64,000 nucleotides of DNA. It comes from Bdellovibrionales bacterium. Lineage in GTDB: Bacteria; Bdellovibrionota; Bdellovibrionia; Bdellovibrionales; UBA1609. Where the stretch lies: positions 64,001 to 128,000 of the forward strand of contig CBDHDF010000007.1 of assembly GCA_965261545.1 (NCBI GenBank), given 5' to 3'. The notes under the pieces were generated by a model. It was not told where the DNA came from. It saw only the letters and a list, made by a program, of their open reading frames with translations, and searched no databases. Made by a program: the position numbers and the translations under genes. Below, piece after piece: positions 11,851 through 64,000 of this stretch (positions within the stretch are counted from its first letter, which is position 1; every line of letters starts with the position of its first letter).

Positions 11851-12722
11851 CTACTTACTTAGCCCGGAGGTGTGTCAAAAGGGACTGTAAAAATAATTGT
11901 GTAACTGCAATTTTTTTCTTAAATCTTAAAGCCACTTATGTGGCTCCACTCCTGGTAAAAAGCACAGTCCCATATTATTCGTCAATGTATAATTGACATT
12001 TTTTCCTTCAAGCGATTTTGTCAGTCACAATGCATTATAAGTTAATGGGGAGGTGGACATCTTCGCTGGTCTATATAATTGGCCTCTTTAGTTACTCTGG
12101 ACTTTTGATTGTATTATGGAGCCGTAATGGGATCATATCAGAACTGGAAAGAACTCAAATAAATAATTATCATCTTGGTTGAAAAAAAATCAGCAATGGC
12201 TCTCTCAAAAAAATGGAAATTCCAATCTCATCAAAGGGTTCATGTGTTTAGGTTCCCATACTATATTACCCCCTTTTTTTTATTTTTTTTAACTTAGGAT
12301 ATTCGAGAAATACCAGAATTGGGATGAAATATGAAAAAAAATGGGAACCCAAATCTGCACCAAGAGGGCATGTATTTAGGTTCCCATACTATATTACCCT
12401 AACCATAGTCTCGGTATTCCAGTACTTCTGTCAACGCCTTAGAGGGGCTTTTAAGCCCCCTTATAAGGCAGGTGGTGGACCTTATTAAAAAACTTAGTTG
12501 TCAAAACGGTCACCGTATTCAATGGCAAACCTGTTCATGGCTGGCTTCCAGTTGTGTAATGGTCGTGTCCATCGCTTAGAGGCCATTTTTATCGCTAAAT
12601 ATACAACTTTTAAAGCCGACCGATCACTGGGAAATATCTTACGATTTCTGATCGCCTTGCGGATCACGCTATTTAACGACTCTATGGCGTTTGTGCATAG
12701 GTGTTCGTGGTTTTTTATTCTT

Positions 12723-17520: not shown

Positions 17521-17729
17521 AGTCTGGAGTAGATGCCACTGCCTTTCATAGGGTTTCATACGAATGAAAAGTTCTTCTTCAATTTGAGAGCATTCTTTTT
17601 TCAAAAAATCTATTCGATCAAGAATGCGTTGAAGAACAAAACGATTTTCTTCCGTCATCTTTCCCGACAGGGCGTAAGAAAATTCTTCGGTCTTTTGACG
17701 TAAAGACCCTCTGGCAAGAGACATCAATT

Positions 17730-19642: not shown

Positions 19643-21017
19643 AGACTTCACATTGCCTCCTATTTCTGCAATCAAAAGCGCTGCACTTAATTCGTCAATT
19701 CCAGGTATAGTCTGGAGTAGATGCCACTGCCTTTCATAGGGTTTCATACGAATGAAAAGTTCTTCTTCAATTTGAGAGCATTCTTTTTTCAAAAAATCTA
19801 TTCGATCAAGAATGCGTTGAAGAACAAAACGATTTTCTTCCGTCATCTTTCCCGACAGGGCGTAAGAAAATTCTTCGGTCTTTTGACGTAAAGACCCTCT
19901 GGCAAGAGACATCAATTTAGAAACTGATCTCTCTCCATTAGCTATGGCACGAATCATGGCCATACCAGATACGCAGTCAGCTTTAGACATTGCATAGGTT
20001 AAACGAATGCCTGAATATTCAAGAACCTTATACATACGATTTTGTTCCGAAGATATTTGGCGGATCGTTTTTGTACGATAACGAGCCAAAAGTCTAATAG
20101 AACGAATCTCACGTGGAGGAATGAAGCTAGCTCTTAGAAGACCACAAGCACCAAGCTCTGCAATCCACTGGCTATCCAACACGTCAGTTTTTTTACCAGT
20201 AATATTTTTGACATGAAAGGCATTGATAACATCTACTTCATAACCTTTTTCTGTCAAATCATCGTATAAAGAATTCCAATAAATCCCTGTGCTCTCAAAA
20301 AGAACTCTCTCAACCTTATGTGGCTTCATCCAAGAGCGCATTCTAGGAAAATTTTTTGGAAAATTCTTGAACTCTTTTGTGAAAAACTTCTTCTTACCGT
20401 CTTCCACTTTGACAATCGTACACATCAACATATGTTGATGAACATCTATTCCACAAACAGAACTATAAATAGTTCCTGTCCAGGGAAGAAAGTTAAGTAG
20501 TTTTAAGTATTTACATGCCTTCCCTTTAGATTTTATGCTTTAAAATGGAGTCCATCAAACATAATCCGTGTAAATTCAGTTACTTACATAAAACGGAAAA
20601 ATAAAATAAGTTCCCCCCCCTCTCTTGACGAACCTTTCACAGCCCCTCCCTTTCAGTGACTTATGTGGCTATCAACTGGTTACTTGATATGAGAGGAAGA
20701 GTTGGATCAACCTGTGTTTCCACCGTGGTGATTTCAAACCTCCTTCAGGGAAATAACATTACGTTGCGCATCAACTTCAAAAAATACTTGACGTGTTTTT
20801 TCAGAGAAATAATTTTTGATATTTTATTCTTCATTTATTTTTTATGTAGGTTTTAGGAGGCGTGGGAACCTCTCTATGAGGTAGAATTCTTATCCATGTT
20901 CTCCGAGAACCTCTCTGATTTTTTTCTTCTTAAAAGACATCCTTGCTCACTTTTTTCCCTCAAAAAAACGTATGTTAATATAAAAATTAAAGAGAAACTT
21001 TCACCAAAGGGGGGACT

Positions 21018-22382
21018 ATGCGCCATTTGAAGAAGACACAGTTGGGACTCTTTTCCCAATATCCTAACCACCAACTCAGTACAGAATTGCAGCAAATTAA
21101 TAACATCATTGATCGCCATCCAGAGTTTGCCCATATGGTTCATGAAGACCTTGTTAAAGAAAAGAAAGATTCTGGTGATATTGGTATGACATCGGAGCAA
21201 GTTCTCAAGGTGGCTATTCTTAAATCCATAAGAGGTCTTTCCTATCGTGCGTTAGCCTTTAATCTTGTCGATTCAGTATCCACCAGAGCTTTTCTGGGCC
21301 TTGAATTGGAAGAAAATTACGCTCACTCCACCTTACAGGACTTGATTGTTCAAATAAGTGAAGAAACTTGGGGAATTATTAGCGCCTCTTTAGTTTCAGA
21401 TGCAAGAGATCAAAAGATTGAGCCGTGTAAGAAAATGAGATTGGACAGTACAGTGACGAAATCAAATATTCATCATCCAACGGATGCATCGCTTTTATAT
21501 GACTGCATAAGAGTTACAGAAAGAGAATTTAAAAAAGTTCGTAAAAATGTCATGAAAGATTTTTGGCGACTTATTTCAAGAGAAGATCTTAAGAGAGCAA
21601 AAACCTTGCTTTACAAAATTAATAATTCCAAAAATGATGCGGAAAGACTACCTTGCTATAAGGAGCTTTTAAAAATCGCTACCAAATTGAACAAAGGATT
21701 ACCTGATACCATCAGAAAGATAAAAAAAGAACAAAAATGTGTGAAGATGAATGCTTTGAAAAAGAGTCTAAAACAGTTAGAAAATGTTGCCTTCTACCTG
21801 GAAAAAATCATCTTTCAAACTCAAAAAAGAGTTATTGAGGGGAAAAAAGTATCTTCTGAAAAAAAGGTCCTATCCATCTTTGAACCGCATACAGACATTA
21901 TTGTAAAGGGGCAAAGAGAAGTCGAGTTTGGGCATAAAATCTTTCTGACCTCAGGGCAAAGCAACATGATTTTAGATTGTCAGATCCCTGATGGCAACCC
22001 CGCAGACTCTGATATGTTTTTAAAAGTTATGAATTCAGTGACACAAACCTATGGGGCTTGCCCTGTAAAAGTAAGTGCAGATGGTGGGTTTGCTTCAAAA
22101 GAAAATCTTGAAGAGGCCAAAGAGATGGGGGCTAAAGATGTTTGCTTCCCAGAAAAAAAAGGAATGAAAATATTAAAGATGGTTAAAAGTGCTTGGGTCT
22201 TTAAAAATCTTCTCAATTGGAGAGCCGGAATAGAGGCTGTTATTTCATTCCTTAAGAGATGTTTTGGTATGAGAGTTGCTTACTGGAAAGGGCATGATGG
22301 TTTTAAGAGGTATGTAAAGAATGCCGTTTGTGCCTATAATTTTGTTGTCTTGGCAAGACATGAATTATCAACTGTCACCTAA
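21018..22382 (+). CDS. ISNCY-type DDE transposase
   Basis: RLDSTV..SNIHHPTD, SIFEPHTDII.KG, SADGGF and WRAGIEAVISFLKR motifs. Confidence 0.9.
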   Translation: MRHLKKTQLGLFSQYPNHQLSTELQQINNIIDRHPEFAHMVHEDLVKEKKDSGDIGMTSEQVLKVAILKSIRGLSYRALAFNLVDSVSTRAFLGLELEENYAHSTLQDLIVQISEETWGIISASLVSDARDQKIEPCKKMRLDSTVTKSNIHHPTDASLLYDCIRVTEREFKKVRKNVMKDFWRLISREDLKRAKTLLYKINNSKNDAERLPCYKELLKIATKLNKGLPDTIRKIKKEQKCVKMNALKKSLKQLENVAFYLEKIIFQTQKRVIEGKKVSSEKKVLSIFEPHTDIIVKGQREVEFGHKIFLTSGQSNMILDCQIPDGNPADSDMFLKVMNSVTQTYGACPVKVSADGGFASKENLEEAKEMGAKDVCFPEKKGMKILKMVKSAWVFKNLLNWRAGIEAVISFLKRCFGMRVAYWKGHDGFKRYVKNAVCAYNFVVLARHELSTVT

Positions 22383-22540
22383 ATTTATCCATTAGGAATA
22401 ACAGCAATGGACCAGGTCGAAGGTGCTAAAATCTTCCAAAGGTAGGGGTGCGTCTTCAAATCGAAAAAACTAGGGCGCAAGTCGCTTAAAGACCTTTTTC
22501 CCCTTAATCTGTAGAGTTTGTGTGGCAAATCTCCAACTCT

Positions 22541-22580
22541 CACTCCCCCATTGAGGCATTGGGAGGCTCAATGGGGAGTG
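22541..22580. terminator. GC-rich hairpin near the ISNCY 3' end (also at 46520-46559)
   Basis: CACTCCCC(C)ATTGAG ... CTCAATGGGGAGTG; terminator role not shown. Confidence 0.5.
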
Positions 22581-23147
22581 TCAGAGAACAAAAAATGGGC
22601 CTTTCTGGACAGAAACTAAATAATATCCACATGACTCCTCCTTTCTGTTAGAAAAAAAGAAGGTGATAAAACTAGAGCCTTGGGATTTTGCCATAAATTC
22701 TAAAGCGAAAATAGGTCAACTTACTATACGTCCATACACTCAGAGTGCAGGTACATGCGTGGGTTCGATCCAAAGCTCAAGACCATGTTACTTCACGGAA
22801 TTAAAATTACCAATCTATTCAACGGCCACTCATCTTATCACCTTCCAATAATGTTATTGCTTTATCCTTTATTGTATCGGAATCATACATGACAAAAATA
22901 CCATCAAAAGTCCAGAGTAACTAAAAGAGGCCAATTATATAGACCAGCGAAGCTGTCCACCGAGTTGCTTCGTGCAAAGAAGTGGGGGCCTAGATAAGAT
23001 TCATGGGCGTGGGTGGGGAAGCAAGGCGCCCCCATGAATGTTACTTCAAATGATAGGTAGTTTTGAGAGTAATAGCATAACTCTCTACGATAGGCTTTAT
23101 TTATCTACAGAGATTATTAAGGCCCATGCTCAAGCCAGTAACTTCTT

Positions 23148-37287: not shown

Positions 37288-38871
37288 TTAATCACCCATG
37301 GGACTGTAATCAATACCTGGCATTTGCTGCTGCCCGGGTGCAAAAGGGTTTGTATCTTCAAGGCTTGCAACAGGGCTTGTGCAATACTGAACGGCGTAGT
37401 GAGCGGAAGGGCGATCATTTCCAGATTTGCCTAGACCCCCGAAGGGAAGCCTTGAACTCGCTCCATTTGTGGTTCGGTTCCAGTTTAAAATACCCACCTT
37501 GGCTCCGGCAAGGACTTGTTCAAAAATACTTCGATCCTTGGAAAACACAGACATGGCCAAGCCAAACCCCGACGAATTGTTGATCTCCACAGCCTCTTCA
37601 ATATCTTCAATTTCATAAATTCCCACATTGGGGCCAAATATCTCACTCTTTTGATAAACTGAATCTGGATTGTGCTTTTTAACGAGAGCGATGCTAGGGG
37701 TGACATAATGACCCTGGGGAGTGAGTTCCAAGACCTTGCCTCTCATGAGCAATTCACAGTCTTCACGCTGGGCAATTTCTTGAAACCGAAGGTATTTTTC
37801 CATGGCGTATTCGCTAATGATGGGCCCCATAAAGTTTTTCTCAGACCAATGGCCCACTTTGATTTTTTTAGCTGTTTCGTGGAATTTGTCCACAAAGGCA
37901 TCTTTGATATCTTTGTGGAGTATGATCTTGCTTGTGCAAGAACACCTTTGCCCCGTGCTGAGGTAAGCCCCTAAAATATTTTCGTAAACAGCCTTGTTCA
38001 AGTCAGCATCTCTCCAAACCACGGAGCAGTTCTTACCTCCCATTTCTAGGGCCAAGATTTTCCAGTGATGCTGAAGAGTTTCTTGTTGGATCTTCAAACC
38101 CACATCGTAGGAGCCCGTAAACAAAACACCATCCACTTTTTCGTGGCCCACGAGGCGACGCCCTGTTTCCGCTTGGCCTTGGACGAGGTTGAAAACTCCA
38201 GGGGGAAACTCTGCTTTTTTAAACATCTCAGCGATGAGTTGGCCCACAGCGGGGGTTTTATCCGAGGGCTTAAAAACAATGGTGTTTCCCGTAGCGAGAG
38301 CGGGAACAAAGTGGCCATTGGGGAGGTGGCCAGGAAAATTAAAAGGCCCTATGACAGCCATCACTCCTCGTGGCCGGTGTCTAATAAATCCGTCCACATG
38401 GGGCAAGGCATTTTCAACCCTCTCCTCACCAACAAGATTCATGGAATGGTTAAGGGTAATATCAATCTTACCCACCATGGCCTTAGCTTCAGACAAAGAC
38501 TCCCACAGGGGTTTTCCCGTTTCCCTGGAAATAACTTCGGCCAGCTGCTCTTTGTGGTCTTCATAAACCTTCTTCAGGCGCAAGAGATATGAGTTTCTGT
38601 CTGTGTCTTTGGATTGCCATGGCTTGTAGGCTTTGGAGGCCGCTTCACAGGCCGTGTCGATATGCTCATAGGCGCATTTCACGTCAATAACCCTATCTTT
38701 GAAATCAGCAGGACTGTGTATATGCCACTCACCGTTGGGCTGCGACGGCTTTATAAAGGCACCTTGGATAAAGTCACCTTGGTATAATATGGGTGACATC
38801 GTTTTTGGTATCGTTTCTGACATCGTTTCTGGTATTATTTGTGACATGGGTTGTGGCACGGTTTTTGGCAT
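37288..38871 (-). CDS. astD: Succinylglutamate-semialdehyde dehydrogenase
   Basis: GPFNFPGHLPNGH and LALEMGGKN motifs; adjacent to astA. Confidence 0.85.
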   Translation of the reverse strand: MPKTVPQPMSQIIPETMSETIPKTMSPILYQGDFIQGAFIKPSQPNGEWHIHSPADFKDRVIDVKCAYEHIDTACEAASKAYKPWQSKDTDRNSYLLRLKKVYEDHKEQLAEVISRETGKPLWESLSEAKAMVGKIDITLNHSMNLVGEERVENALPHVDGFIRHRPRGVMAVIGPFNFPGHLPNGHFVPALATGNTIVFKPSDKTPAVGQLIAEMFKKAEFPPGVFNLVQGQAETGRRLVGHEKVDGVLFTGSYDVGLKIQQETLQHHWKILALEMGGKNCSVVWRDADLNKAVYENILGAYLSTGQRCSCTSKIILHKDIKDAFVDKFHETAKKIKVGHWSEKNFMGPIISEYAMEKYLRFQEIAQREDCELLMRGKVLELTPQGHYVTPSIALVKKHNPDSVYQKSEIFGPNVGIYEIEDIEEAVEINNSSGFGLAMSVFSKDRSIFEQVLAGAKVGILNWNRTTNGASSRLPFGGLGKSGNDRPSAHYAVQYCTSPVASLEDTNPFAPGQQQMPGIDYSPMGD

Positions 38872-38874
38872 AAA

Positions 38875-39900
38875 TCACTCCGCTGTAACATACAGCTTGT
38901 CTGAAGCCGTGAGATCATATGTGCTGCATACTTCCTCGGGGAGACGTAACTCTTCATTGTCAACTTCGTAGGGAGAATAACCCCCATAGAACTCCCCGGA
39001 TCTGACAAAGCCAAAATACCCCTTTTGGGTCAAGACGTGACTTCTCTCCATGGAGATGGGTTTAATTTTGTTATAAAAGGAGCCATTTTGTATCATAGGT
39101 ATTTCGTCACATAAAGCTGCGATATGGGGGCCCCCATCAAAGGGGTCTACCTCATTGTTATAACTAAATCCAAGTCTTTTCAACAACCGATAAGCAGGCT
39201 GGGTTTCAAAACCAACCTTACCTATAACCAATCGAGCTTTGGAGTTCAAGAGGCACACATAAATATCTTCTGAAGGAAACAAACTACTGATAAACTTCTT
39301 ATCTTGGAGGCTGAGCTGATTGGCCTCTTGATAGGACATCCCTGTAAATTTGCGACCCAGTGACTCCCAAAAGTCGCTTCGCTTGTTGTCAACAAGGGGT
39401 GGAGCCATTTCTGCATAAAGTTCTCTTTTAAATTTTTTTCTGAACATTCCAATATACACGAGTCGCATCAAACTGAGGATTTTTCCCACCTTCTCTGGGC
39501 GTCCTCTGTAATTGGGAGTGAGAATCAGCCCTCCCAGCTCTGTGGGTCCATCTGTGGTCGCTTTCATTCTCAATATTCGATGAACAAAGCCCACACCTAA
39601 CTCTTGGCTAAACCGCTCTGTGGTGAGCACCTCAAAACTATAGGAGGGGTTCTCTGTTGTGCCATGTTTTCCGATGATTTGAGAGCAACCCACTGTCATC
39701 TGGTGCTTTGTATCTTCCACCACAAAGATGTATTTGCCCTTGTCATCTTCCACTTCTCCACGAAAGGAGTCTTGACTCCATTGAATCATTTTTGCAATGC
39801 GTTTTTTATCAGGAGGTAAATTAAGGAGGTCAAACGTATGGGCAAGATTGTAGATATCATCAAGGTCTTCGGGGCGAGCCCCTCGTGCTATAAATCTCAT
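38875..39900 (-). CDS. astA: Arginine N-succinyltransferase
   Basis: TELGGLIL, FWESLGRKF and VDPFDGGP motifs. Confidence 0.88.
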   Translation of the reverse strand: MRFIARGARPEDLDDIYNLAHTFDLLNLPPDKKRIAKMIQWSQDSFRGEVEDDKGKYIFVVEDTKHQMTVGCSQIIGKHGTTENPSYSFEVLTTERFSQELGVGFVHRILRMKATTDGPTELGGLILTPNYRGRPEKVGKILSLMRLVYIGMFRKKFKRELYAEMAPPLVDNKRSDFWESLGRKFTGMSYQEANQLSLQDKKFISSLFPSEDIYVCLLNSKARLVIGKVGFETQPAYRLLKRLGFSYNNEVDPFDGGPHIAALCDEIPMIQNGSFYNKIKPISMERSHVLTQKGYFGFVRSGEFYGGYSPYEVDNEELRLPEEVCSTYDLTASDKLYVTAE

Positions 39901-39924: not shown

Positions 39925-41313
39925 TCATAAATTCACTTCCAAAACCGACTTCTCAAGAATTTCTTTTGCCACCTGAATATCATCTTTAGTAAGAATCCCA
40001 GGCAGCAGAAACCTCAAGCGATGGGGGCCTCTTCCACAGCCAAAAGTCATGAGGCCATTTTTGTAAAGAGTCTTCACGAGTTTAAGTGTCTTTTCCTTGG
40101 AACCATCCAAAGGTGTGACAGCCACCATAAGGCCCAGCCCCCCGGCCTCTTGAAGTAAGCCTTTACATGTTGATGCATTCAGTTCATTTAACATCCCAAC
40201 AAAATCCCTATGGATTTGATGAATTTTTCCTTTCTCACCCATAAAAGATTGCTTATCTAGAGTATTTAATATCTCATAGCCTGCCACCAATGCAACACTA
40301 GACCCCGCAAAGGTCCCTGCAATAAGACCCGGCCGAGGGTTGAGTTCTTTGGTAAACAAAGTGGCAGCATTTTGCATGGCTTTGGCGACAGTGCAAACAT
40401 CCACATATTCGCCAATACCTAGGGTTTCATAGGCAAAAAATTCACCCGTTCGACAAAAGGTTTGGACTTCATCGACCCAAATAGGAATTTCTCTTTCGCG
40501 ACATAATTCGAGCATGGGTAAAAAGAACTCCCTAGGGGCGACGTTGTAGCCACCTTCACCCTGCATGGGTTCAAATGTAAAGGCACAAATATCCTTTCCG
40601 TGCTCATCTAAGTATTTTTTAAGTTGATTTAAACTTTTTTCAGAGCTGCGAGGATCGCTCTTTTTATAAAAGGGAATTCTGAGAACTTCATTGTAATCGG
40701 GTTGCCTGACCTTAAAGTTAGGGTTATCTGTCACCTCGGCCATCATGACGGTACGACCGGCAAAAGTCGCTTCCATGGCTATGATTTTTCTTGCTGGAAA
40801 TCGTTTTTGGCGGCAGATTTTAAGGGCATTTTCATTGGCCATAGAGCCTGATGTGGTGACCCATGCATGCTCCAAGCGACTGTTTCGACTTGCCAGCTCC
40901 ACAAGCTTTGCATTGAGTTGGGCGTACTCCTTATTGGGCTGTAAGTTTCCCTGGATGATGACATCGGACAAAGCTCCTTGAAGGGCGGCTTTCACGACTC
41001 GGGGGTGGCTATGGCCCAAAACATGAACCCCAATTCCATTGATGAGGTCAAGTTTGACACTCCCATCTTCAAGTTCCACATAGGCTCCTCGACCCAACCC
41101 CGTTCCCACATAGGAAAAAAATAGAGGTCGCCCACGGTGTTTTCCAATGTCATCCACGAGGGAAGAAAAAGTTTTGCCATGGGCGGAGGGCTCCGAGGGC
41201 TCTGCCGGAGCCTTGATGTTTGAAGAAAGTACATCCACCTTTTCCACCAATTCTTGAATAAGTTGAGAAACCTTTGGGTCCTCTAGCAATTGGTGCCCCC
41301 ATAACTTTGACAT
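39925..41313 (-). CDS. Class III PLP aminotransferase (AstC/ArgD-like)
   Basis: SGSMANENA, EPMQGEGG and VDEVQT motifs; upstream of astA-astD. Confidence 0.85.
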   Translation of the reverse strand: MSKLWGHQLLEDPKVSQLIQELVEKVDVLSSNIKAPAEPSEPSAHGKTFSSLVDDIGKHRGRPLFFSYVGTGLGRGAYVELEDGSVKLDLINGIGVHVLGHSHPRVVKAALQGALSDVIIQGNLQPNKEYAQLNAKLVELASRNSRLEHAWVTTSGSMANENALKICRQKRFPARKIIAMEATFAGRTVMMAEVTDNPNFKVRQPDYNEVLRIPFYKKSDPRSSEKSLNQLKKYLDEHGKDICAFTFEPMQGEGGYNVAPREFFLPMLELCREREIPIWVDEVQTFCRTGEFFAYETLGIGEYVDVCTVAKAMQNAATLFTKELNPRPGLIAGTFAGSSVALVAGYEILNTLDKQSFMGEKGKIHQIHRDFVGMLNELNASTCKGLLQEAGGLGLMVAVTPLDGSKEKTLKLVKTLYKNGLMTFGCGRGPHRLRFLLPGILTKDDIQVAKEILEKSVLEVNL

Positions 41314-51841: not shown

Positions 51842-52369
51842 ACTCCAGACTATACCTGGAATTGACGAATTAAGTGCAGCGCTTTTGATTGCAGAAATAG
51901 GAGGCAATGTGAAGTCTTTTAAAAATAAAGGAAATTTTTGCTCCTGGATGGGGATTTGCCCATCCAATAATGAGAGCGCAGGAAAAAAAGTCTTCACGAA
52001 CGAGGAAAGCGAACACATATGTGAAATCGTTGGTATGTGAGATGGCCAATAGTGCTATTAAGACGAATTCACAATTCAAAGGCAAATACCAATCACTTGT
52101 TATAAGGCGTGGGCACAAGAGATCAGTGATTGCCGTTGGTCACAAAATGATGGGAGTTGTTTATTCAGTCATAAGTAATGACACCCCCTACAAAGACCCT
52201 GGAATTGACTATGAAAAGCTCATGGTGAAAAAAAATGCACCAAGGTGGATTAGAGCGTTAAAAAAGTATGATTTCATGTAATGTAGGATGATTTAAAAAC
52301 TCGGACATTTGAAAAAATTCGAAGAACGGATAGTGGATTCGTGCGTCCAAACTACCCCGGAGATTCATA
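51842..52369 (+). mobile_element. IS110 element 3' half (A7 frameshift allele)
   Basis: Matches the 3' part of 52370-54074 apart from the A-run. Confidence 0.92.
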
Positions 52370-52568
52370 GTAACATTCATGGGGGCGCCTTGCTTCCCCA
52401 CCCACGCCCATGAATCTTATCTAGGCCCCCACTTCTTTGCACGAAGCAACTCGGTGGACAGCTTCGCTGGTCTATATAATTGGCCTCTTTTAGTTACTCT
52501 GGACTTTTGATTGTATTTTTGTCATGTATGATTCCGATACAATAAAGGATAAAGCAATAACATTATTG

Positions 52569-52755
52569 GAAGGTGATAAGATGAGTGGCCGTTGAATAGA
52601 TTGGTAATTTTAATTCCGTGAAGTAACATGGTCTTGAGCTTTGGATCGAACCCACGCATGTACCTGCACTCTGAGTGTATGGACGTATAGTAAGTTGACC
52701 TATTTTCGCTTTAGAATTTATGGCAAAATCCCAAGGCTCTAGTTTTATCACCTTC
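52569..52755 (+). ncRNA. Candidate IS110 bridge RNA (minus-strand copies at 22659-22845, 58534-58720, 60258-60444, 62116-62302, 63818->64000)
   Basis: 11-bp closing stem GAAGGTGATAA/TTATCACCTTC; two inner stem-loops with segments matching the target and donor junctions; directly upstream of the recombinase. Confidence 0.7.
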
Positions 52756-52783
52756 TTTTTTTCTAACAGAAAGGAGGAGTCAT

Positions 52784-53986
52784 GTGGATATTATTTATAG
52801 TTCTGTTTGTGGAATAGATGTTCATCAACATATGTTGATGTGTACGATTGTCAAAGTGGAAGACGGTAAGAAGAAGTTTTTCACAAAAGAGTTCAAGAAT
52901 TTTCCAAAAAATTTTCCTAGAATGCGCTCTTGGATGAAGCCACATAAGGTTGAGAGAGTTCTTTTTGAGAGCACAGGGATTTATTGGAATTCTTTATACG
53001 ATGATTTGACAGAAAAAGGTTATGAAGTAGATGTTATCAATGCCTTTCATGTCAAAAATATTACTGGTAAAAAAACTGACGTGTTGGATAGCCAGTGGAT
53101 TGCAGAGCTTGGTGCTTGTGGTCTTCTAAGAGCTAGCTTCATTCCTCCACGTGAGATTCGTTCTATTAGACTTTTGGCTCGTTATCGTACAAAAACGATC
53201 CGCCAAATATCTTCGGAACAAAATCGTATGTATAAGGTTCTTGAATATTCAGGCATTCGTTTAACCTATGCAATGTCTAAAGCTGACTGCGTATCTGGTA
53301 TGGCCATGATTCGTGCCATAGCTAATGGAGAGAGATCAGTTTCTAAATTGATGTCTCTTGCCAGAGGGTCTTTACGTCAAAAGACCGAAGAATTTTCTTA
53401 CGCCCTGTCGGGAAAGATGACGGAAGAAAATCGTTTTGTTCTTCAACGCATTCTTGATCGAATAGATTTTTTGAAAAAAGAATGCTCTCAAATTGAAGAA
53501 GAACTTTTCATTCGTATGAAACCCTATGAAAGGCAGTGGCATCTACTCCAGACTATACCTGGAATTGACGAATTAAGTGCAGCGCTTTTGATTGCAGAAA
53601 TAGGAGGCAATGTGAAGTCTTTTAAAAATAAAGGAAATTTTTGCTCCTGGATGGGGATTTGCCCATCCAATAATGAGAGCGCAGGAAAAAAAAAGTCTTC
53701 ACGAACGAGGAAAGCGAACACATATGTGAAATCGTTGGTATGTGAGATGGCCAATAGTGCTATTAAGACGAATTCACAATTCAAAGGCAAATACCAATCA
53801 CTTGTTATAAGGCGTGGGCACAAGAGATCAGTGATTGCCGTTGGTCACAAAATGATGGGAGTTGTTTATTCAGTCATAAGTAATGACACCCCCTACAAAG
53901 ACCCTGGAATTGACTATGAAAAGCTCATGGTGAAAAAAAATGCACCAAGGTGGATTAGAGCGTTAAAAAAGTATGATTTCATGTAA
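52784..53986 (+). CDS. IS110-family DEDD recombinase (400 aa)
   Basis: GIDVH, ESTGIYW, KTDVLD, TIPGI and NESAGK motifs; AGGAGG RBS. Confidence 0.95.
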   Translation: MDIIYSSVCGIDVHQHMLMCTIVKVEDGKKKFFTKEFKNFPKNFPRMRSWMKPHKVERVLFESTGIYWNSLYDDLTEKGYEVDVINAFHVKNITGKKTDVLDSQWIAELGACGLLRASFIPPREIRSIRLLARYRTKTIRQISSEQNRMYKVLEYSGIRLTYAMSKADCVSGMAMIRAIANGERSVSKLMSLARGSLRQKTEEFSYALSGKMTEENRFVLQRILDRIDFLKKECSQIEEELFIRMKPYERQWHLLQTIPGIDELSAALLIAEIGGNVKSFKNKGNFCSWMGICPSNNESAGKKKSSRTRKANTYVKSLVCEMANSAIKTNSQFKGKYQSLVIRRGHKRSVIAVGHKMMGVVYSVISNDTPYKDPGIDYEKLMVKKNAPRWIRALKKYDFM

Positions 53987-54348
53987 TGTAGGATGATTTA
54001 AAAACTCGGACATTTGAAAAAATTCGAAGAACGGATAGTGGATTCGTGCGTCCAAACTACCCCGGAGATTCATAGTAACTATTCAGGGGGTGCTGCATTA
54101 ATTCGAACAATTTTTTTAAAAAAAGTATAAAAATTCTTGACAAGTTTTTGAAGCAAACGACCTCTTTCATTTGTTCTTTATCGAATATGTTCCTGCATAT
54201 GCCTTAAACTCTCTGAGAGCCATAGTATTGAAAGATTGTGAAACATAGGTCGCGGGGGGCACTTCTCATTCCTTTTGCTTCTTAGAACGAATCCTAGTGC
54301 ATTTTTTTTAATGAAAAAAAGGCATGTTAATATTTTCATAAGGTAAGT

Positions 54349-55800
54349 ATGAAAATAGAAAATATTGACGTGTCTTCAGCCATAAATAAAATCAGGAAGC
54401 TTCTTAAGAAAGAGAAGTCCCTTTCTCCCGCTTTTATTGTGGCCATTGAGTTGTTGATCAAAATCATCACTATTCTAGTAAATCAAAAAAAATTAAATAG
54501 TCAAAACAGTAGTATTGCCCCTTCTCAAGATCCGAATGGCCCTAAAAAGAAACCTAAGGAAGAAACTGGTAAGAAGCCAGGAGGACAACCCGGACACGAA
54601 GGAGCTACTTTAAAACCCGTGGATACTCCAGACAAGGTGGAGTTCATTTCTATTAATAAAGAGGAACTTCCTCCAGGTGATTACATTTCTTCTGGAGTTG
54701 AAAAGCGTCAAGTATTTGAGGTAGACCTTTCTGTGCATGTCACGGAGTATCAAGGAGAAATCCTCGAAGACCAAGATGGGAATCAGTGGGTTGCAGGTTT
54801 TCCAGAAGGAATCAATAACCCAACTCAATATGGCCCTTCTGTGAAAGCTCACTCAGTTTATATGTCCCAGTTTCAGTTAATCCCTCATCTTCGAGTCGCA
54901 AGTTACTTTAATCAATGGGGTCTATCGCTTGCTGGATCTACGGTACACAATTTTAACAAATCTGCCTTTGAGGCTCTGGAAGCTTTTGAGGAGTGGGCAA
55001 AGGAAACTCTTCTGAACTCACCTTTGATTCATGCTGACGAAACTGGAGTGAATGTTAATGGGAAGAGGCTGTGGTTTCACCTCTTGTCCAATGATACTGT
55101 GGTTCTCTATCAGGTGGACGAAAAAAGAGGCGCAGAGGCTATGGATCGCATGGGAATTCTTCCAAAATACACAGGGATTGTTTGTCATGACCATTGGAAA
55201 CCTTATTATACATATACTTCCTGCATTCATGCCCTTTGCAATGCGCACCATTTAAGGGAGCTTCAAAGAGCTTGGGAGCAAGATGATCAAAAATGGGCAA
55301 AAGAAATGAAGTCTCTTTTAGAGACAATAAACAAAGAGGTGCACGATACGCAGAACCAATGCCTTTCACAAGACCGAATTGAATATTACAAAGAGAAATA
55401 TCGAAATATTCTCTTCGAAGGGGAAAAGGAATCTCCATTAATGGAGAGGACAGAGAAAAAAAAGAAGGGAAAGGTTAAACAATCCAAATCTAGAAATTTA
55501 CTAGATCGACTGAGAAACTTTGAAGATGATACCTTGCTATTTATGAAGGACCCCATAGTTCCATTTACGAATAATATAGCAGAAAATGATCTGAGAATGA
55601 CCAAAGTTCAGCAGAAAATATCTGGGTGCTTTCGTTCGTTGATGGGAGCCAAGACATTTTGTAGAAACCGAAGCTTTCTCCTGACTTGCCAGAAAAATGG
55701 CATAGAACCTAAAGATGCTCTAAATATGCTATTTCAAGGAAAACTTCCCTCATTTATGACTCGAATTCGCCCACCCCCTGAATCAATGCCGTTTCCTTAA
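54349..55800 (+). CDS. IS66 transposase TnpC-like (C-terminus altered by IS4)
   Basis: NSSIAPSQD, GGQPGHEG, HADETG, CNAHHLREL and TNNIAENDLR..K..QKISG motifs. Confidence 0.93.
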   Translation: MKIENIDVSSAINKIRKLLKKEKSLSPAFIVAIELLIKIITILVNQKKLNSQNSSIAPSQDPNGPKKKPKEETGKKPGGQPGHEGATLKPVDTPDKVEFISINKEELPPGDYISSGVEKRQVFEVDLSVHVTEYQGEILEDQDGNQWVAGFPEGINNPTQYGPSVKAHSVYMSQFQLIPHLRVASYFNQWGLSLAGSTVHNFNKSAFEALEAFEEWAKETLLNSPLIHADETGVNVNGKRLWFHLLSNDTVVLYQVDEKRGAEAMDRMGILPKYTGIVCHDHWKPYYTYTSCIHALCNAHHLRELQRAWEQDDQKWAKEMKSLLETINKEVHDTQNQCLSQDRIEYYKEKYRNILFEGEKESPLMERTEKKKKGKVKQSKSRNLLDRLRNFEDDTLLFMKDPIVPFTNNIAENDLRMTKVQQKISGCFRSLMGAKTFCRNRSFLLTCQKNGIEPKDALNMLFQGKLPSFMTRIRPPPESMPFP

Positions 55801-57200
55801 GAAAAATCTCTTGAAATCATTAGATAAATCGACAAGAATAAGACTTGTTTTATTTTACACCCAACCCTCAACCAAGGAGTAAGTCACATGCAATCCAATA
55901 TTGATCTCGAAAGCCCCCAAATGACGAGTTCGCGTCACAGATGACCATTTTATTCTACCAAAACTTGATTCTTCCTTCAAGCCAGAGCACCTTGTCGATC
56001 CAGAAAAACAAAAAAGGAATCGAAAATTTAATCCTCAAATTTTCTTTTTTACCATTATCTATCTTATTTCCGGAACAAATTACGAAGGCTACCAAATCGC
56101 TCTTAAGACGGTATGGACTCATTTTGGTGACCTGCTTCTCATGCCAGTCAAAAGCAGTCTCAGCAAGATACGTCAAAGTATTTCTTACCTATTTTTCAAA
56201 GATATCTTTGAATCTCTGATTACAGACTACGAACCATTGAGAAAAACGTTTCATGGTTTTTATATCTATGCCATAGATGGCGACCAATTAGCACTTCCTC
56301 GCTCTAAAGATCTTTTAAAGGAGGGTTATTGTGGGTACCCTTGCCCAAATGAGATGGAAACTCATTTCTTACGTATGTATCTATCTCATGCTTATGACGT
56401 TTTATCGGGTGTGACAAAGAATCTTTGCTATTCTCCCGCTCTCAACGAAATCGCCAATGCTATTCAAATGATAGGTAGTTTTGAGAGTAATAGCATAACT
56501 CTCTACGATAGGCTTTATTTATCTACAGAGATTATTAAGGCCCATGCTCAAGCCAGTAACTTCTTTATTGCGCGTTGTAAGCGAGGCTCTACTTTTATCC
56601 CCATTGTAAATTTATTTAATGGCCCAGGTTGGTATTCACGAATGGTTATTGAGGGGGTGGTCATTCATCTCTATAAGTATAAAAACCCAAAGACTGGGGA
56701 GTTCTCTGTTTTGGCCACTAATCTTCCGCATGGCTCCTTGGACAAGAAGGATATGGTTGCTCTTTACTCTCGTCGTTGGGAAATAGAAACGACATTTCGT
56801 GATTTTACATCGACAATGAAAATGGAGCAGTGGCACTCAACAAGCCTTAATGGAATATTGCAAGAGCTGTATTCTTATTTTTGGCTCTTCAATTATACAA
56901 AGATTCAAATGAGCATAAATGAGGATGAAGACAGTGTGAATCAGTTGGTAAAAAATGACTACAAAAAACCTAACTTTAAACTGATTCTTGATTTCATAAT
57001 GGATAGCATCCCTCTTTTTGTTGCGGGGCTCTATCAGAAATTTAGGAAGCAGATAAAGTTGCTGATGAAGATTTCAATGGAGAAGAGGAGGCACTTCAAA
57101 AGAAGCTATGAAAGGTCTATCAAAAGGGCTGGGAGTTCTTTTAAAAGAAATAGCTTAACGCAGAGGCAGAGGGGTGTGGTGGCTTAAGGAAACGGCATTG
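55784..57200 (+). mobile_element. IS4-family element, copy D
   Basis: TIRs as copy A; 10-bp TSD CCCCCTGAAT at 55774-55783 and 57201-57210. Confidence 0.95.
56141..57187 (+). CDS. IS4-family transposase
   Basis: Near-identical to the other copies. Confidence 0.88.
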   Translation: MPVKSSLSKIRQSISYLFFKDIFESLITDYEPLRKTFHGFYIYAIDGDQLALPRSKDLLKEGYCGYPCPNEMETHFLRMYLSHAYDVLSGVTKNLCYSPALNEIANAIQMIGSFESNSITLYDRLYLSTEIIKAHAQASNFFIARCKRGSTFIPIVNLFNGPGWYSRMVIEGVVIHLYKYKNPKTGEFSVLATNLPHGSLDKKDMVALYSRRWEIETTFRDFTSTMKMEQWHSTSLNGILQELYSYFWLFNYTKIQMSINEDEDSVNQLVKNDYKKPNFKLILDFIMDSIPLFVAGLYQKFRKQIKLLMKISMEKRRHFKRSYERSIKRAGSSFKRNSLTQRQRGVVA

Positions 57201-57216
57201 CCCCCTGAATAGTTAC

Positions 57217-58918
57217 TATGAATCTCCGGGGTAGTTTGGACGCACGAATCCACTATCCGTTCTTCGAATTTTTTCAAATGTCCGAGTTTTTAAATCATCC
57301 TACATTACATGAAATCATACTTTTTTAACGCTCTAATCCACCTTGGTGCATTTTTTTTCACCATGAGCTTTTCATAGTCAATTCCAGGGTCTTTGTAGGG
57401 GGTGTCATTACTTATGACTGAATAAACAACTCCCATCATTTTGTGACCAACGGCAATCACTGATCTCTTGTGCCCACGCCTTATAACAAGTGATTGGTAT
57501 TTGCCTTTGAATTGTGAATTCGTCTTAATAGCACTATTGGCCATCTCACATACCAACGATTTCACATATGTGTTCGCTTTCCTCGTTCGTGAAGACTTTT
57601 TTTCCTGCGCTCTCATTATTGGATGGGCAAATCCCCATCCAGGAGCAAAAATTTCCTTTATTTTTAAAAGACTTCACATTGCCTCCTATTTCTGCAATCA
57701 AAAGCGCTGCACTTAATTCGTCAATTCCAGGTATAGTCTGGAGTAGATGCCACTGCCTTTCATAGGGTTTCATACGAATGAAAAGTTCTTCTTCAATTTG
57801 AGAGCATTCTTTTTTCAAAAAATCTATTCGATCAAGAATGCGTTGAAGAACAAAACGATTTTCTTCCGTCATCTTTCCCGACAGGGCGTAAGAAAATTCT
57901 TCGGTCTTTTGACGTAAAGACCCTCTGGCAAGAGACATCAATTTAGAAACTGATCTCTCTCCATTAGCTATGGCACGAATCATGGCCATACCAGATACGC
58001 AGTCAGCTTTAGACATTGCATAGGTTAAACGAATGCCTGAATATTCAAGAACCTTATACATACGATTTTGTTCCGAAGATATTTGGCGGATCGTTTTTGT
58101 ACGATAACGAGCCAAAAGTCTAATAGAACGAATCTCACGTGGAGGAATGAAGCTAGCTCTTAGAAGACCACAAGCACCAAGCTCTGCAATCCACTGGCTA
58201 TCCAACACGTCAGTTTTTTTACCAGTAATATTTTTGACATGAAAGGCATTGATAACATCTACTTCATAACCTTTTTCTGTCAAATCATCGTATAAAGAAT
58301 TCCAATAAATCCCTGTGCTCTCAAAAAGAACTCTCTCAACCTTATGTGGCTTCATCCAAGAGCGCATTCTAGGAAAATTTTTTGGAAAATTCTTGAACTC
58401 TTTTGTGAAAAACTTCTTCTTACCGTCTTCCACTTTGACAATCGTACACATCAACATATGTTGATGAACATCTATTCCACAAACAGAACTATAAATAATA
58501 TCCACATGACTCCTCCTTTCTGTTAGAAAAAAAGAAGGTGATAAAACTAGAGCCTTGGGATTTTGCCATAAATTCTAAAGCGAAAATAGGTCAACTTACT
58601 ATACGTCCATACACTCAGAGTGCAGGTACATGCGTGGGTTCGATCCAAAGCTCAAGACCATGTTACTTCACGGAATTAAAATTACCAATCTATTCAACGG
58701 CCACTCATCTTATCACCTTCCAATAATGTTATTGCTTTATCCTTTATTGTATCGGAATCATACATGACAAAAATACCATCAAAAGTCCAGAGTAACTAAA
58801 AGAGGCCAATTATATAGACCAGCGAAGCTGTCCACCGAGTTGCTTCGTGCAAAGAAGTGGGGGCCTAGAAAGATTCATGGGCGTGGGTGGGGAAGCAAGG
58901 CGCCCCCATGAATGTTAC
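57217..58918 (-). mobile_element. IS110 array copy 1 (1702 bp; recombinase 58505-57305 frameshifted)
   Basis: Reverse complement of 52370-54074; A7 instead of A9. Confidence 0.93.
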
Positions 58919-58940
58919 TATGAATCTCCGGGGTAGTTAC
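58919..58940 (-). repeat. 22-bp IS110 right-end stub
   Basis: TATGAATCTCCGGGGTAGTTAC between copies 1 and 2. Confidence 0.9.
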
Positions 58941-60642
58941 TATGAATCTCCGGGGTAGTTTGGACGCACGAATCCACTATCCGTTCTTCGAATTTTTTCA
59001 AATGTCCGAGTTTTTAAATCATCCTACATTACATGAAATCATACTTTTTTAACGCTCTAATCCACCTTGGTGCATTTTTTTTCACCATGAGCTTTTCATA
59101 GTCAATTCCAGGGTCTTTGTAGGGGGTGTCATTACTTATGACTGAATAAACAACTCCCATCATTTTGTGACCAACGGCAATCACTGATCTCTTGTGCCCA
59201 CGCCTTATAACAAGTGATTGGTATTTGCCTTTGAATTGTGAATTCGTCTTAATAGCACTATTGGCCATCTCACATACCAACGATTTCACATATGTGTTCG
59301 CTTTCCTCGTTCGTGAAGACTTTTTTTCCTGCGCTCTCATTATTGGATGGGCAAATCCCCATCCAGGAGCAAAAATTTCCTTTATTTTTAAAAGACTTCA
59401 CATTGCCTCCTATTTCTGCAATCAAAAGCGCTGCACTTAATTCGTCAATTCCAGGTATAGTCTGGAGTAGATGCCACTGCCTTTCATAGGGTTTCATACG
59501 AATGAAAAGTTCTTCTTCAATTTGAGAGCATTCTTTTTTCAAAAAATCTATTCGATCAAGAATGCGTTGAAGAACAAAACGATTTTCTTCCGTCATCTTT
59601 CCCGACAGGGCGTAAGAAAATTCTTCGGTCTTTTGACGTAAAGACCCTCTGGCAAGAGACATCAATTTAGAAACTGATCTCTCTCCATTAGCTATGGCAC
59701 GAATCATGGCCATACCAGATACGCAGTCAGCTTTAGACATTGCATAGGTTAAACGAATGCCTGAATATTCAAGAACCTTATACATACGATTTTGTTCCGA
59801 AGATATTTGGCGGATCGTTTTTGTACGATAACGAGCCAAAAGTCTAATAGAACGAATCTCACGTGGAGGAATGAAGCTAGCTCTTAGAAGACCACAAGCA
59901 CCAAGCTCTGCAATCCACTGGCTATCCAACACGTCAGTTTTTTTACCAGTAATATTTTTGACATGAAAGGCATTGATAACATCTACTTCATAACCTTTTT
60001 CTGTCAAATCATCGTATAAAGAATTCCAATAAATCCCTGTGCTCTCAAAAAGAACTCTCTCAACCTTATGTGGCTTCATCCAAGAGCGCATTCTAGGAAA
60101 ATTTTTTGGAAAATTCTTGAACTCTTTTGTGAAAAACTTCTTCTTACCGTCTTCCACTTTGACAATCGTACACATCAACATATGTTGATGAACATCTATT
60201 CCACAAACAGAACTATAAATAATATCCACATGACTCCTCCTTTCTGTTAGAAAAAAAGAAGGTGATAAAACTAGAGCCTTGGGATTTTGCCATAAATTCT
60301 AAAGCGAAAATAGGTCAACTTACTATACGTCCATACACTCAGAGTGCAGGTACATGCGTGGGTTCGATCCAAAGCTCAAGACCATGTTACTTCACGGAAT
60401 TAAAATTACCAATCTATTCAACGGCCACTCATCTTATCACCTTCCAATAATGTTATTGCTTTATCCTTTATTGTATCGGAATCATACATGACAAAAATAC
60501 CATCAAAAGTCCAGAGTAACTAAAAGAGGCCAATTATATAGACCAGCGAAGCTGTCCACCGAGTTGCTTCGTGCAAAGAAGTGGGGGCCTAGAAAGATTC
60601 ATGGGCGTGGGTGGGGAAGCAAGGCGCCCCCATGAATGTTAC
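58941..60642 (-). mobile_element. IS110 array copy 2 (frameshifted)
   Basis: As copy 1. Confidence 0.93.
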
Positions 60643-60798
60643 TATGAATCTCCGGGGTAGTTTGGACGCACGAATCCACTATCCGTTCTTCGAATTTTTT
60701 CAAATGTCCGAGTTTTTAAATCATCCTACATTACATGAAATCATACTTTTTTAACGCTCTAATCCACCTTGGTGCATTTTTTTTCACCATGAGCTTAC
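60643..60798 (-). repeat. 156-bp IS110 right-end stub
   Basis: Right-end sequence up to CACCATGAGCTT, then AC and the next copy. Confidence 0.9.
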
Positions 60799-62500
60799 TA
60801 TGAATCTCCGGGGTAGTTTGGACGCACGAATCCACTATCCGTTCTTCGAATTTTTTCAAATGTCCGAGTTTTTAAATCATCCTACATTACATGAAATCAT
60901 ACTTTTTTAACGCTCTAATCCACCTTGGTGCATTTTTTTTCACCATGAGCTTTTCATAGTCAATTCCAGGGTCTTTGTAGGGGGTGTCATTACTTATGAC
61001 TGAATAAACAACTCCCATCATTTTGTGACCAACGGCAATCACTGATCTCTTGTGCCCACGCCTTATAACAAGTGATTGGTATTTGCCTTTGAATTGTGAA
61101 TTCGTCTTAATAGCACTATTGGCCATCTCACATACCAACGATTTCACATATGTGTTCGCTTTCCTCGTTCGTGAAGACTTTTTTTCCTGCGCTCTCATTA
61201 TTGGATGGGCAAATCCCCATCCAGGAGCAAAAATTTCCTTTATTTTTAAAAGACTTCACATTGCCTCCTATTTCTGCAATCAAAAGCGCTGCACTTAATT
61301 CGTCAATTCCAGGTATAGTCTGGAGTAGATGCCACTGCCTTTCATAGGGTTTCATACGAATGAAAAGTTCTTCTTCAATTTGAGAGCATTCTTTTTTCAA
61401 AAAATCTATTCGATCAAGAATGCGTTGAAGAACAAAACGATTTTCTTCCGTCATCTTTCCCGACAGGGCGTAAGAAAATTCTTCGGTCTTTTGACGTAAA
61501 GACCCTCTGGCAAGAGACATCAATTTAGAAACTGATCTCTCTCCATTAGCTATGGCACGAATCATGGCCATACCAGATACGCAGTCAGCTTTAGACATTG
61601 CATAGGTTAAACGAATGCCTGAATATTCAAGAACCTTATACATACGATTTTGTTCCGAAGATATTTGGCGGATCGTTTTTGTACGATAACGAGCCAAAAG
61701 TCTAATAGAACGAATCTCACGTGGAGGAATGAAGCTAGCTCTTAGAAGACCACAAGCACCAAGCTCTGCAATCCACTGGCTATCCAACACGTCAGTTTTT
61801 TTACCAGTAATATTTTTGACATGAAAGGCATTGATAACATCTACTTCATAACCTTTTTCTGTCAAATCATCGTATAAAGAATTCCAATAAATCCCTGTGC
61901 TCTCAAAAAGAACTCTCTCAACCTTATGTGGCTTCATCCAAGAGCGCATTCTAGGAAAATTTTTTGGAAAATTCTTGAACTCTTTTGTGAAAAACTTCTT
62001 CTTACCGTCTTCCACTTTGACAATCGTACACATCAACATATGTTGATGAACATCTATTCCACAAACAGAACTATAAATAATATCCACATGACTCCTCCTT
62101 TCTGTTAGAAAAAAAGAAGGTGATAAAACTAGAGCCTTGGGATTTTGCCATAAATTCTAAAGCGAAAATAGGTCAACTTACTATACGTCCATACACTCAG
62201 AGTGCAGGTACATGCGTGGGTTCGATCCAAAGCTCAAGACCATGTTACTTCACGGAATTAAAATTACCAATCTATTCAACGGCCACTCATCTTATCACCT
62301 TCCAATAATGTTATTGCTTTATCCTTTATTGTATCGGAATCATACATGACAAAAATACCATCAAAAGTCCAGAGTAACTAAAAGAGGCCAATTATATAGA
62401 CCAGCGAAGCTGTCCACCGAGTTGCTTCGTGCAAAGAAGTGGGGGCCTAGAAAGATTCATGGGCGTGGGTGGGGAAGCAAGGCGCCCCCATGAATGTTAC
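60799..62500 (-). mobile_element. IS110 array copy 3 (frameshifted)
   Basis: As copy 1. Confidence 0.93.
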
Positions 62501-64000
62501 TATGAATCTCCGGGGTAGTTTGGACGCACGAATCCACTATCCGTTCTTCGAATTTTTTCAAATGTCCGAGTTTTTAAATCATCCTACATTACATGAAATC
62601 ATACTTTTTTAACGCTCTAATCCACCTTGGTGCATTTTTTTTCACCATGAGCTTTTCATAGTCAATTCCAGGGTCTTTGTAGGGGGTGTCATTACTTATG
62701 ACTGAATAAACAACTCCCATCATTTTGTGACCAACGGCAATCACTGATCTCTTGTGCCCACGCCTTATAACAAGTGATTGGTATTTGCCTTTGAATTGTG
62801 AATTCGTCTTAATAGCACTATTGGCCATCTCACATACCAACGATTTCACATATGTGTTCGCTTTCCTCGTTCGTGAAGACTTTTTTTCCTGCGCTCTCAT
62901 TATTGGATGGGCAAATCCCCATCCAGGAGCAAAAATTTCCTTTATTTTTAAAAGACTTCACATTGCCTCCTATTTCTGCAATCAAAAGCGCTGCACTTAA
63001 TTCGTCAATTCCAGGTATAGTCTGGAGTAGATGCCACTGCCTTTCATAGGGTTTCATACGAATGAAAAGTTCTTCTTCAATTTGAGAGCATTCTTTTTTC
63101 AAAAAATCTATTCGATCAAGAATGCGTTGAAGAACAAAACGATTTTCTTCCGTCATCTTTCCCGACAGGGCGTAAGAAAATTCTTCGGTCTTTTGACGTA
63201 AAGACCCTCTGGCAAGAGACATCAATTTAGAAACTGATCTCTCTCCATTAGCTATGGCACGAATCATGGCCATACCAGATACGCAGTCAGCTTTAGACAT
63301 TGCATAGGTTAAACGAATGCCTGAATATTCAAGAACCTTATACATACGATTTTGTTCCGAAGATATTTGGCGGATCGTTTTTGTACGATAACGAGCCAAA
63401 AGTCTAATAGAACGAATCTCACGTGGAGGAATGAAGCTAGCTCTTAGAAGACCACAAGCACCAAGCTCTGCAATCCACTGGCTATCCAACACGTCAGTTT
63501 TTTTACCAGTAATATTTTTGACATGAAAGGCATTGATAACATCTACTTCATAACCTTTTTCTGTCAAATCATCGTATAAAGAATTCCAATAAATCCCTGT
63601 GCTCTCAAAAAGAACTCTCTCAACCTTATGTGGCTTCATCCAAGAGCGCATTCTAGGAAAATTTTTTGGAAAATTCTTGAACTCTTTTGTGAAAAACTTC
63701 TTCTTACCGTCTTCCACTTTGACAATCGTACACATCAACATATGTTGATGAACATCTATTCCACAAACAGAACTATAAATAATATCCACATGACTCCTCC
63801 TTTCTGTTAGAAAAAAAGAAGGTGATAAAACTAGAGCCTTGGGATTTTGCCATAAATTCTAAAGCGAAAATAGGTCAACTTACTATACGTCCATACACTC
63901 AGAGTGCAGGTACATGCGTGGGTTCGATCCAAAGCTCAAGACCATGTTACTTCACGGAATTAAAATTACCAATCTATTCAACGGCCACTCATCTTATCAC
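62501..64000 (-). mobile_element. IS110 array copy 4 (frameshifted; runs off window)
   Basis: As copy 1, directly head-to-tail with copy 3. Confidence 0.92.

Follow-up and report, generated by a model that had tools for sequence, protein, structure and literature searches.

Bridge recombinases of the IS110 family of insertion sequences (IS) are under development as genome editors, and their directionality is ascribed to insertion itself, which divides the target between two hybrid junctions, neither of them a target any more. Some members of the family, IS4321/IS5075 in the Tn21 repeats and IS1383 in the IS1384 repeats, reportedly take the terminal repeats of another mobile element as their target; IS4321/IS5075 are said to belong to the IS1111 group and to insert within the repeat and break it. 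Head-to-tail copies at one site reportedly arose in Streptomyces after transformation with circles of IS117, in work attributed to Smokvina et al. in 1994. Here, a 64,000-nucleotide stretch of a Bdellovibrionales genome (GenBank assembly GCA_965261545.1, contig CBDHDF010000007.1, positions 64,001 to 128,000 of the forward strand; hereafter the window, whose positions serve as coordinates, with C1, C2, C7, C11 and so on denoting contigs and C7:n a position on contig 7) was found to hold an array of IS110 copies stacked at the tip of an IS66-family element. In contrast to what is reported for IS4321/IS5075, insertion of this element falls 2 bp from the tip, restores the complete IS66 end and gives rise to stacks. 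Head-to-tail copies are shared with IS117, whose reported case involves neither an RNA guide nor an IS66 target. Taken as a whole, the locus is, in our judgement, rather probably explained by an IS110 bridge recombinase that rebuilds its target at IS66 tips, together with duplication of copies in place.

The window element resembles IS621 (PMC11208160, PMC13626964) in its DEDD and serine recombinase, its long non-coding end upstream of the gene, which carries the target and donor loops, its 2-bp core, its long (7) and short (2) target arms and its circle-type joint. It differs from IS621 in the 400-amino-acid length of the recombinase, in the long arm on the right side of the element, in the IS66-tip target, and in its look-alike donor and target, by which the junction of left donor and right target (LD-RT) keeps all observed target letters. 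The preprint of Hu et al. (10.64898/2026.08.14.744561) reports 437 tandem duplications of full modules and 468 of non-coding units, left-donor-only boundaries, resolution and duplication in place and no target immunity, and its expanded IS110 loci resemble the window array in their full-module tandems and left-donor-only boundaries. One-ended LD joints, made by transfer from LD-RT to a new RT, and tandem by-products are described for CazIS110-1 in 10.1101/2025.10.25.684509; together with half-match insertion by IS621 (10.64898/2026.08.31.748434) they supply the chemistry of the stubs described below, although both are laboratory systems in which tandems are transient by-products. Large amplifications bounded by ISPpu10 have also been reported (10.64898/2026.03.19.712850). 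Outside subscription journals, ISfinder notes and bioRxiv supplements, the literature searched held no IS110 element targeting IS66 ends and no target regeneration, and one preprint expects the opposite of target regeneration. Tandem IS110 copies and one-ended joints have been published, as has the targeting of transposon ends, and the array in itself is no novelty. What is new is the position of the target, which lets insertion rebuild it; the rest is mostly explained by published chemistry.

The array consists of exactly four IS110 copies on the minus strand, running from 57217 to C7:128198, 198 bp past the window end. At least four head-to-tail copies at one site had been proposed in the initial annotation, and they are present in the assembly, the last one closing at C7:128198. 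The copy nearest to the IS66 tip, U1 (57217-58913; A7 frameshift, allele 45-), is followed by the circle-type joint GT-AA-C (58914-58918) and by a 22-bp stub (58919-58940), which is the last 22 bp of the right end joined to the right end of U2 at a cryptic AAC. Beyond U2 (58941-60637), a 156-bp stub (60643-60798), the last 156 bp of the right end, is joined at a cryptic AA to the right end of U3 (60799-62495), and the distal copy U4 (62501-64000 and on to C7:128198; allele 45A) ends next to the 8-bp duplication of IS66. U1, U2 and U3 are identical to the letter, and U4 differs by one indel. A unit with its 5-bp joint measures 1,702 bp, and the joint CATA-GTAAC-ATTCAT was found at 58909, 60633 and 62491 (minus), as had been noted; the spacing is not 1,702 bp throughout, since U4/U3 is the sole direct full-to-full joint, and pieces of the right end, 156 bp long at U3/U2 and 22 bp long at U2/U1, lengthen the other two spacings (1,724, 1,858 and 1,702 bp). 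The transposase gene of all four copies has A7 in place of A9, giving 319 and 103 amino acids instead of 400. Across 35 copies this run reads A9 in 14, A8 in 3 and A7 in 18, and the other A7, T7 and A8 runs of the element showed no variation in 35-37 copies, so that A7 is probably a real inherited allele. Programmed frameshifting at the A run, where relatives end too, was unsupported, for the relatives look like one-base losses and A9 gives the full frame. Logan contigs (at most two samples, possibly including the source sample) show A9 with the A7 places uncovered, which proves nothing since such contigs drop variants; their IS110:IS66:IS4 depth (108:55:330 in X1, 102:47:405 in X4) is near the 36:15:118 of the assembly and gives no copy number.

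The host of the array is an IS66-family element (54075-55783, plus), identified by its DDE_Tnp_IS66 gene (open reading frame (ORF) 54349-55800; PF03050, E 1.6e-49), its terminal repeats and its 8-bp target duplication, and both of its tips are targets. The retained target, GTAAC TATTCAGGGGG (57201-57216, minus), is the tip of its right terminal repeat. An IS4-type element (55784-57200, plus; DDE_Tnp_1, 348 amino acids) with a 10-bp duplication ATTCAGGGGG sits 16 bp inside this repeat and parts the array junction from the IS66 body; in the genome the same IS4 lies at IS110 position 1171-1180 in three loci and in the IS66 right repeat in three. At the left tip, an intact IS110 (52375-54074, plus) encodes the 400-amino-acid recombinase (52784-53986), and the second head-to-tail joint that had been noted at this end was confirmed at 52370 (plus), where the copy meets the 3' part of a distal copy (51842-52374, plus). 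Further pieces of that distal copy, broken by other IS, were found on the minus strand within 17521-23052 (17521-17729, 19643-20471 and 22617-23039), and its end adjoins the other IS66 8-bp duplication CATTTGAA. The pieces were probably displaced by an inversion between IS4 copies; the window shows at 16103-51842 a probable 35-kb inversion between IS4-type copies, splitting one IS110 copy. The duplication flanks the outer sides of both stacks, and all four doubly occupied IS66 elements tested keep theirs. Because the 8-bp duplications lie outside the stacks, either IS66 was in place before IS110 copies joined its tips, or both moved together. Movement of IS110-IS66-IS110 as a unit was considered, and among four such composites none share alleles at two loci.

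Throughout the genome, 15 of 33 IS66 tips of this type (one of the 33 being a different IS66-like end) carry the element, and a sister tip differing by one letter was used at none of 13 sites (8 distinct flanks; Fisher p 0.018). The 37 right ends abut the tip (15), a left end head to tail (10), an internal element site (6) or other DNA (6), and head-to-tail joints occur at 6 of the 15 occupied tips. The target consensus is GT-AA-CTATTCA, with every conserved letter inside the IS66 end. The 23 distinct first-insertion flanks all have TAAC, 21 have GTAAC, and at most 0.59 bit is found further left; to the left of GT-AA they are just AT-rich, as are 18 empty tips. Among the right flanks away from tips, three match CTATTCA at 5-7 of 7 letters, and another at 6 of 7 after a one-base shift. 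The GTAAC that had been noted as shared at the joints is there, but what the joints share as a core is AA, since all 12 non-standard joints retain AA and several lack the C. The right end of the element itself provides GT-AA, and because the conserved letters lie within the IS66 end, the target would survive insertion. In agreement with the earlier observation that the right junction is kept, GTAACTATTCA was found at 57206 (minus) and 54075 (plus), and, judged by these flanks, nothing that real targets have in common is missing from the right junction. The 603-kb contig C7 holds 24 of the 37 IS110 right ends, a sign of local hopping or of a tolerant region.

The recombinase comprises an N-terminal DEDD RuvC-like domain (PF01548, E 4.8e-23) and a C-terminal PF02371 domain (E 4e-21), in which S299, the catalytic serine, is nearly invariant across 40 sequences. 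Motifs with D12, E62, D99 and D102 were located in the 400-amino-acid protein, and we take these to be the DEDD residues. The element lacks terminal inverted repeats, its junction tables show a short shared core with no additional duplication, and clean self-insertions lie at element positions 319 and 891. It has 409 bp of non-coding DNA upstream of the gene and about 90 bp downstream. A non-coding region 3' of the gene is the criterion of the IS1111 group (PMC11187229); with its long upstream region and without that downstream layout, the element is by its sequence an IS110-group member. The 8-bp pair ATGAATCT / AGATTCAT, with its left arm about 35 bp inside the end, may or may not correspond to the 7-17 bp sub-terminal inverted repeats that lie near both ends in the IS1111 group. 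Relatives were found by alignment scans of genome contigs only at 33-48% identity, a single-protein scan of these contigs giving no match; 10 of 300 genomes of the order had matches, all distant (32-36% identity), and the best plasmid match had 41% identity. Among 158 relative loci, six have a second copy alongside in the same direction and one, L076, is a near-identical tandem without regeneration. No IS66 targeting was seen in these relatives, in which IS66 genes occur at 2 of 158 loci, away from the junctions.

The left end contains a predicted bridge RNA with target and donor loops (52578-52703, plus; the same stretch is present in every array copy), in which three of four guides were assigned: the right-target guide TTGAATAG (52592-52599), the left-target guide GTGAAGTAAC (52618-52627) and the left-donor guide TATAGTAA (52686-52693), all on the plus strand. 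The upstream ends of 22 relatives, picked from the 158 loci by highest identity (39-48%) and enough flank, were aligned. The alignment shows two loops; of 11 consensus pairs, 7 have changes on both sides (21 rows, without L044 and L001). In the first loop, the 3' strand follows the left junction (mean shared suffix 4.8 letters vs 3.5 when permuted, 0 of 10,000; 18 rows, four of which scored 0, with the window and L044, L037, L003 and L084 excluded as mis-registered, the kin not being independent), and the 3' strand of the second loop, the donor guide, fits the right end in 17 of 21 relatives. In the window element the guides read GTGAAGT-AA-C (left target) and TATAGT-AA (donor), and the 5' strand of the first loop, TTGAATAG, complements CTATTCA; many relatives have a U-rich stretch at this right-target position without a clear match. 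The 2 letters preceding the core are the same in the target and donor guides of 3 of 22 elements, and agreement over 3 letters is unique to the window element (L113, mis-parsed in this comparison, differs under either parse). With wobble allowed, the donor end matches the left guide at 5 of 7 letters; at most 4 letters match in 18 of the 23 first-insertion flanks and in 13 of the 18 empty tips. TGAGTGT, tried as the right-donor guide, sits in a variable stem and was dropped. Rfam held no family for the left-end RNA, and a single-sequence fold of the left end was no better than shuffles (z -1.1). Taking the top strand as the sense strand of the transposase, the first guide in this 400-amino-acid subfamily is the one that complements the top strand, though the RNA is upstream; that order is assigned to IS1111-group elements in PMC11187229.

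It had been proposed that each insertion regenerates a usable target, so that copies accumulate. Target regeneration is supported by the flanks, the fit of the donor end to the left target guide, the stacks at 6 of 15 tips and the mixed alleles; accumulation by insertion probably does not extend to U1 and U2, which do not look like fresh insertions. Neighbours differ at markers found at other loci too in 5 of 7 full-to-full joints (the distal copy of two stacks was assembled by eye). Serial events per tip (0/1/2/3) numbered 18/9/4/2 vs 16.4/11.5/4.0/0.9 under a Poisson distribution (p 0.19), and since the load is near Poisson, there is no sign of immunity at occupied tips. In all three stacks with later insertions, the IS66-proximal copy is clean and all eight insertions lie further out (rough odds 0.016), which is the pattern that entry of the newest copy at the right junction would give. 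Several independent lines, each modest, thus suggest target regeneration.

In addition to serial insertion, duplication in place also appears to have contributed. Two loci, C7:311k and C7:227-233k, have the right end of the element joined through AA(C) to a site that lies 52 and 349 bp, respectively, upstream of that element's left end, so that chromosomal flank of this length plus element is repeated exactly, with three identical 2,051-bp units at C7:227-233k; these joints fit the target poorly (0-4 of 7). Within a stack, such a duplication would yield a further copy, the same as its predecessor, together with a stub from the right end of the neighbour, and the order U3-stub-U2-stub-U1 fits this. 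U2 and U1 would be in-place duplicates rather than fresh insertions, because they are identical to U3 and stand behind stubs, and the 22- and 156-bp stubs are best read, from their sequence, as in-place duplications of upstream DNA plus element. The likely history of the array is U4 and U3 by insertion, followed by two duplications; only U4 and U3 look like separate insertions, and serial insertion would explain two of the four copies. The stub joints share the AA core, in line with the earlier proposal that the non-identical stubs implicate the recombinase. The 22-bp stub site was found again at C7:266588, one base shifted. Stubs as insertions into the neighbour's right end were also considered; the window has no truncated partner upstream, and this route would be possible solely with later collapse.

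The reading we favour is based on the array anatomy, the target consensus, the guide covariation in relatives, the alleles and the flank duplications; RNA expression, the order of events, the choice of RNA loop that binds the junction, the sister-chromatid route and action in trans are inferred. The element would be an active IS110 bridge recombinase whose left-end RNA now reads the first 11 bases of the IS66 terminal repeat, with recombination 2 bp inside the tip, at the AA core. CTATTCA, the long target arm, would lie on the right side within IS66, and the left arm would in practice be just GT, because the DNA outside the IS66 end is arbitrary. As the right end of the element also finishes in GT-AA, the right junction would again be a full target, with the IS66 end intact. 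By one route, new circles would enter between the last copy and IS66 (U4, then U3). By the other, the right junction would act in place as a one-ended donor, joining an AA site shortly upstream on the sister chromatid and duplicating the upstream piece plus element (156-bp stub with U2, 22-bp stub with U1); the stubs would consist of right-end DNA because the neighbour copy lay upstream. The frameshifted copies were probably mobilised in trans by intact copies. It is possible, though we hold this tentatively, that the donor end has converged on the target as a self-renewing landing pad, in which the rebuilt target equals or surpasses an empty one and the IS66 end stays intact; the left junction mimics the IS66 end as well, so IS66 may mobilise IS110 riders, or their 50-bp remnants, and insert them elsewhere with duplication of 8 bp.

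Several observations weigh against this account. Head-to-tail joints with the same element, at 6 of 15 tips vs none of 6 other sites, are not significantly different (p 0.12), occupancy is uneven (9 of 14 tips on C7, 1 of 10 on C11), so that tips are not equal trials, and the per-tip loads and the damage were counted by hand. At C11:725962 a full copy stands head to tail behind a mini-element with no target match in the right flank, and the perfect tandem L076 has a donor end unlike its left guide; stacks can therefore form without regeneration. For two markers all four combinations exist among the copies, so that gene conversion or recurrent slippage could mimic mixed alleles. The copies flanking the C7:266588 stub are unlike, for which simple duplication is insufficient and imprecise excision, or insertion with collapse, is needed instead. 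The right-donor guide has no confident assignment, and no sigma-70-like promoter was found at the joint in 52200-52800, though the host may use another promoter type. Finally, the sequence cannot separate recognition by the target loop from a donor half-match at the same junction. That alternative, generic to IS110, has a circle meeting the donor half of an existing junction through its donor loop (left donor at the right junction, or right donor at the left junction), target retention being incidental. Such insertion has been demonstrated for IS621, although it made up 4.7% of reads in the programmed set (10.64898/2026.08.31.748434), and the 437 tandem duplications of complete modules (10.64898/2026.08.14.744561) also speak for it, as do the copies at C11:725962 and C10:577812 behind donor-like ends, the self-insertion at position 319, which struck donor-guide sequence, and L076. 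However, all 10 same-element head-to-tail joints sit in stacks anchored on IS66 tips, the load is near the expectation for equal use of empty and occupied tips, and a near-identical tandem was seen in just 1 of 158 relative loci; we therefore regard a half-match origin of the stacks as unlikely.

Still less probable in our view is that all stacks came from in-place duplication, by right with left junctions on sister chromatids or by RecA unequal exchange, or from multimer circles, with the alleles mixed later. The identity of U1, U2 and U3, the three 2,051-bp units at C7:227-233k, the tandem repeats of CazIS110-1 in 3 of 96 colonies (10.1101/2025.10.25.684509) and the overdispersed load when all copies are counted (p 0.014) would fit this; the ordered allele pair common to C1 and C2:82069 would too, but haplotypes are so few that it is expected by chance. 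Against it, the copies meeting at 5 of 7 full joints carry different alleles of markers that other loci share, the marker being a substitution at two of these joints; damage is restricted to distal copies, and neither the stub joints with their AA core nor the initial head-to-tail joint can be created by homologous exchange alone. An assembly artefact, in which a long-read assembler over-expanded one or two copies, is very improbable. U1-U3 are identical and none of the Logan contigs spans the array, which also counts against our account, but the stub joints at AA cores are unique, with one seen again elsewhere in shifted register; U4 differs from U3, the 8-bp duplications match across the stacks, the other A7/A8 runs are invariant in 35-37 copies, and six tips bear stacks of differing make-up.

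Were target rebuilding confirmed, the landing pad would be a natural exception to the rule that a target is lost on insertion, and would offer a design, ready for use, by which cargo could be stacked repeatedly and in order at one locus. The element suggests a rule of failure, namely a short target arm equal to the terminal letters of the donor, which predicts uncontrolled multi-copy insertion in designs meeting it, or serial stacking if wanted. The genome also preserves one-ended reaction products, as stubs and flank duplications, that recent preprints infer statistically.

Small derivatives of the element were observed too. Elements of 44-55 bp, made of the first 40 bp of IS110 closed by an inverted GTTAC, occur at C2:618619, C6:99928, C10:204619, C2:273894 and C2:345414-383674 (six copies), with a perfect 8-bp target duplication at 3 of 5 independent loci; they are either scars of collapsed IS110-IS66-IS110 composites or minis from IS110 ends mobilised by IS66. 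Non-autonomous minis of about 105 bp, with the ends of this IS110 and a compensated sub-terminal repeat, lie at C2:233615, C2:289231, C3:20871, C6:3550, C10:576457 and C11:725857. Two of the minis are on an IS66-like tip of different sequence, TGCTCAGGGG, and one mini is head to tail with a full copy; these elements may record an older guide. In ISPpu9/MITEPpu9 an IS110 element likewise has a small non-autonomous partner with the same ends, sometimes in tandem, with the difference of a repetitive extragenic palindrome (REP) target and an RNA 3' of the gene (PMC12288879). Another repeat, which has dozens of copies, includes at 12052-12115 a 65-bp segment of the left end of IS110 that spans positions 79-143 and contains TATAAT.

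Elsewhere in the window, the consecutive ORFs 39925-41313 (aminotransferase), 38875-39900 (arginine N-succinyltransferase-like) and 37288-38871 (aldehyde dehydrogenase) presumably form an arginine (ast) operon-like cluster. The IS load is very heavy, with a median cover of about 118 (the IS4-type element), 65, 58, 37, 36, 31, 15 and 14 copies for the eight elements tested.

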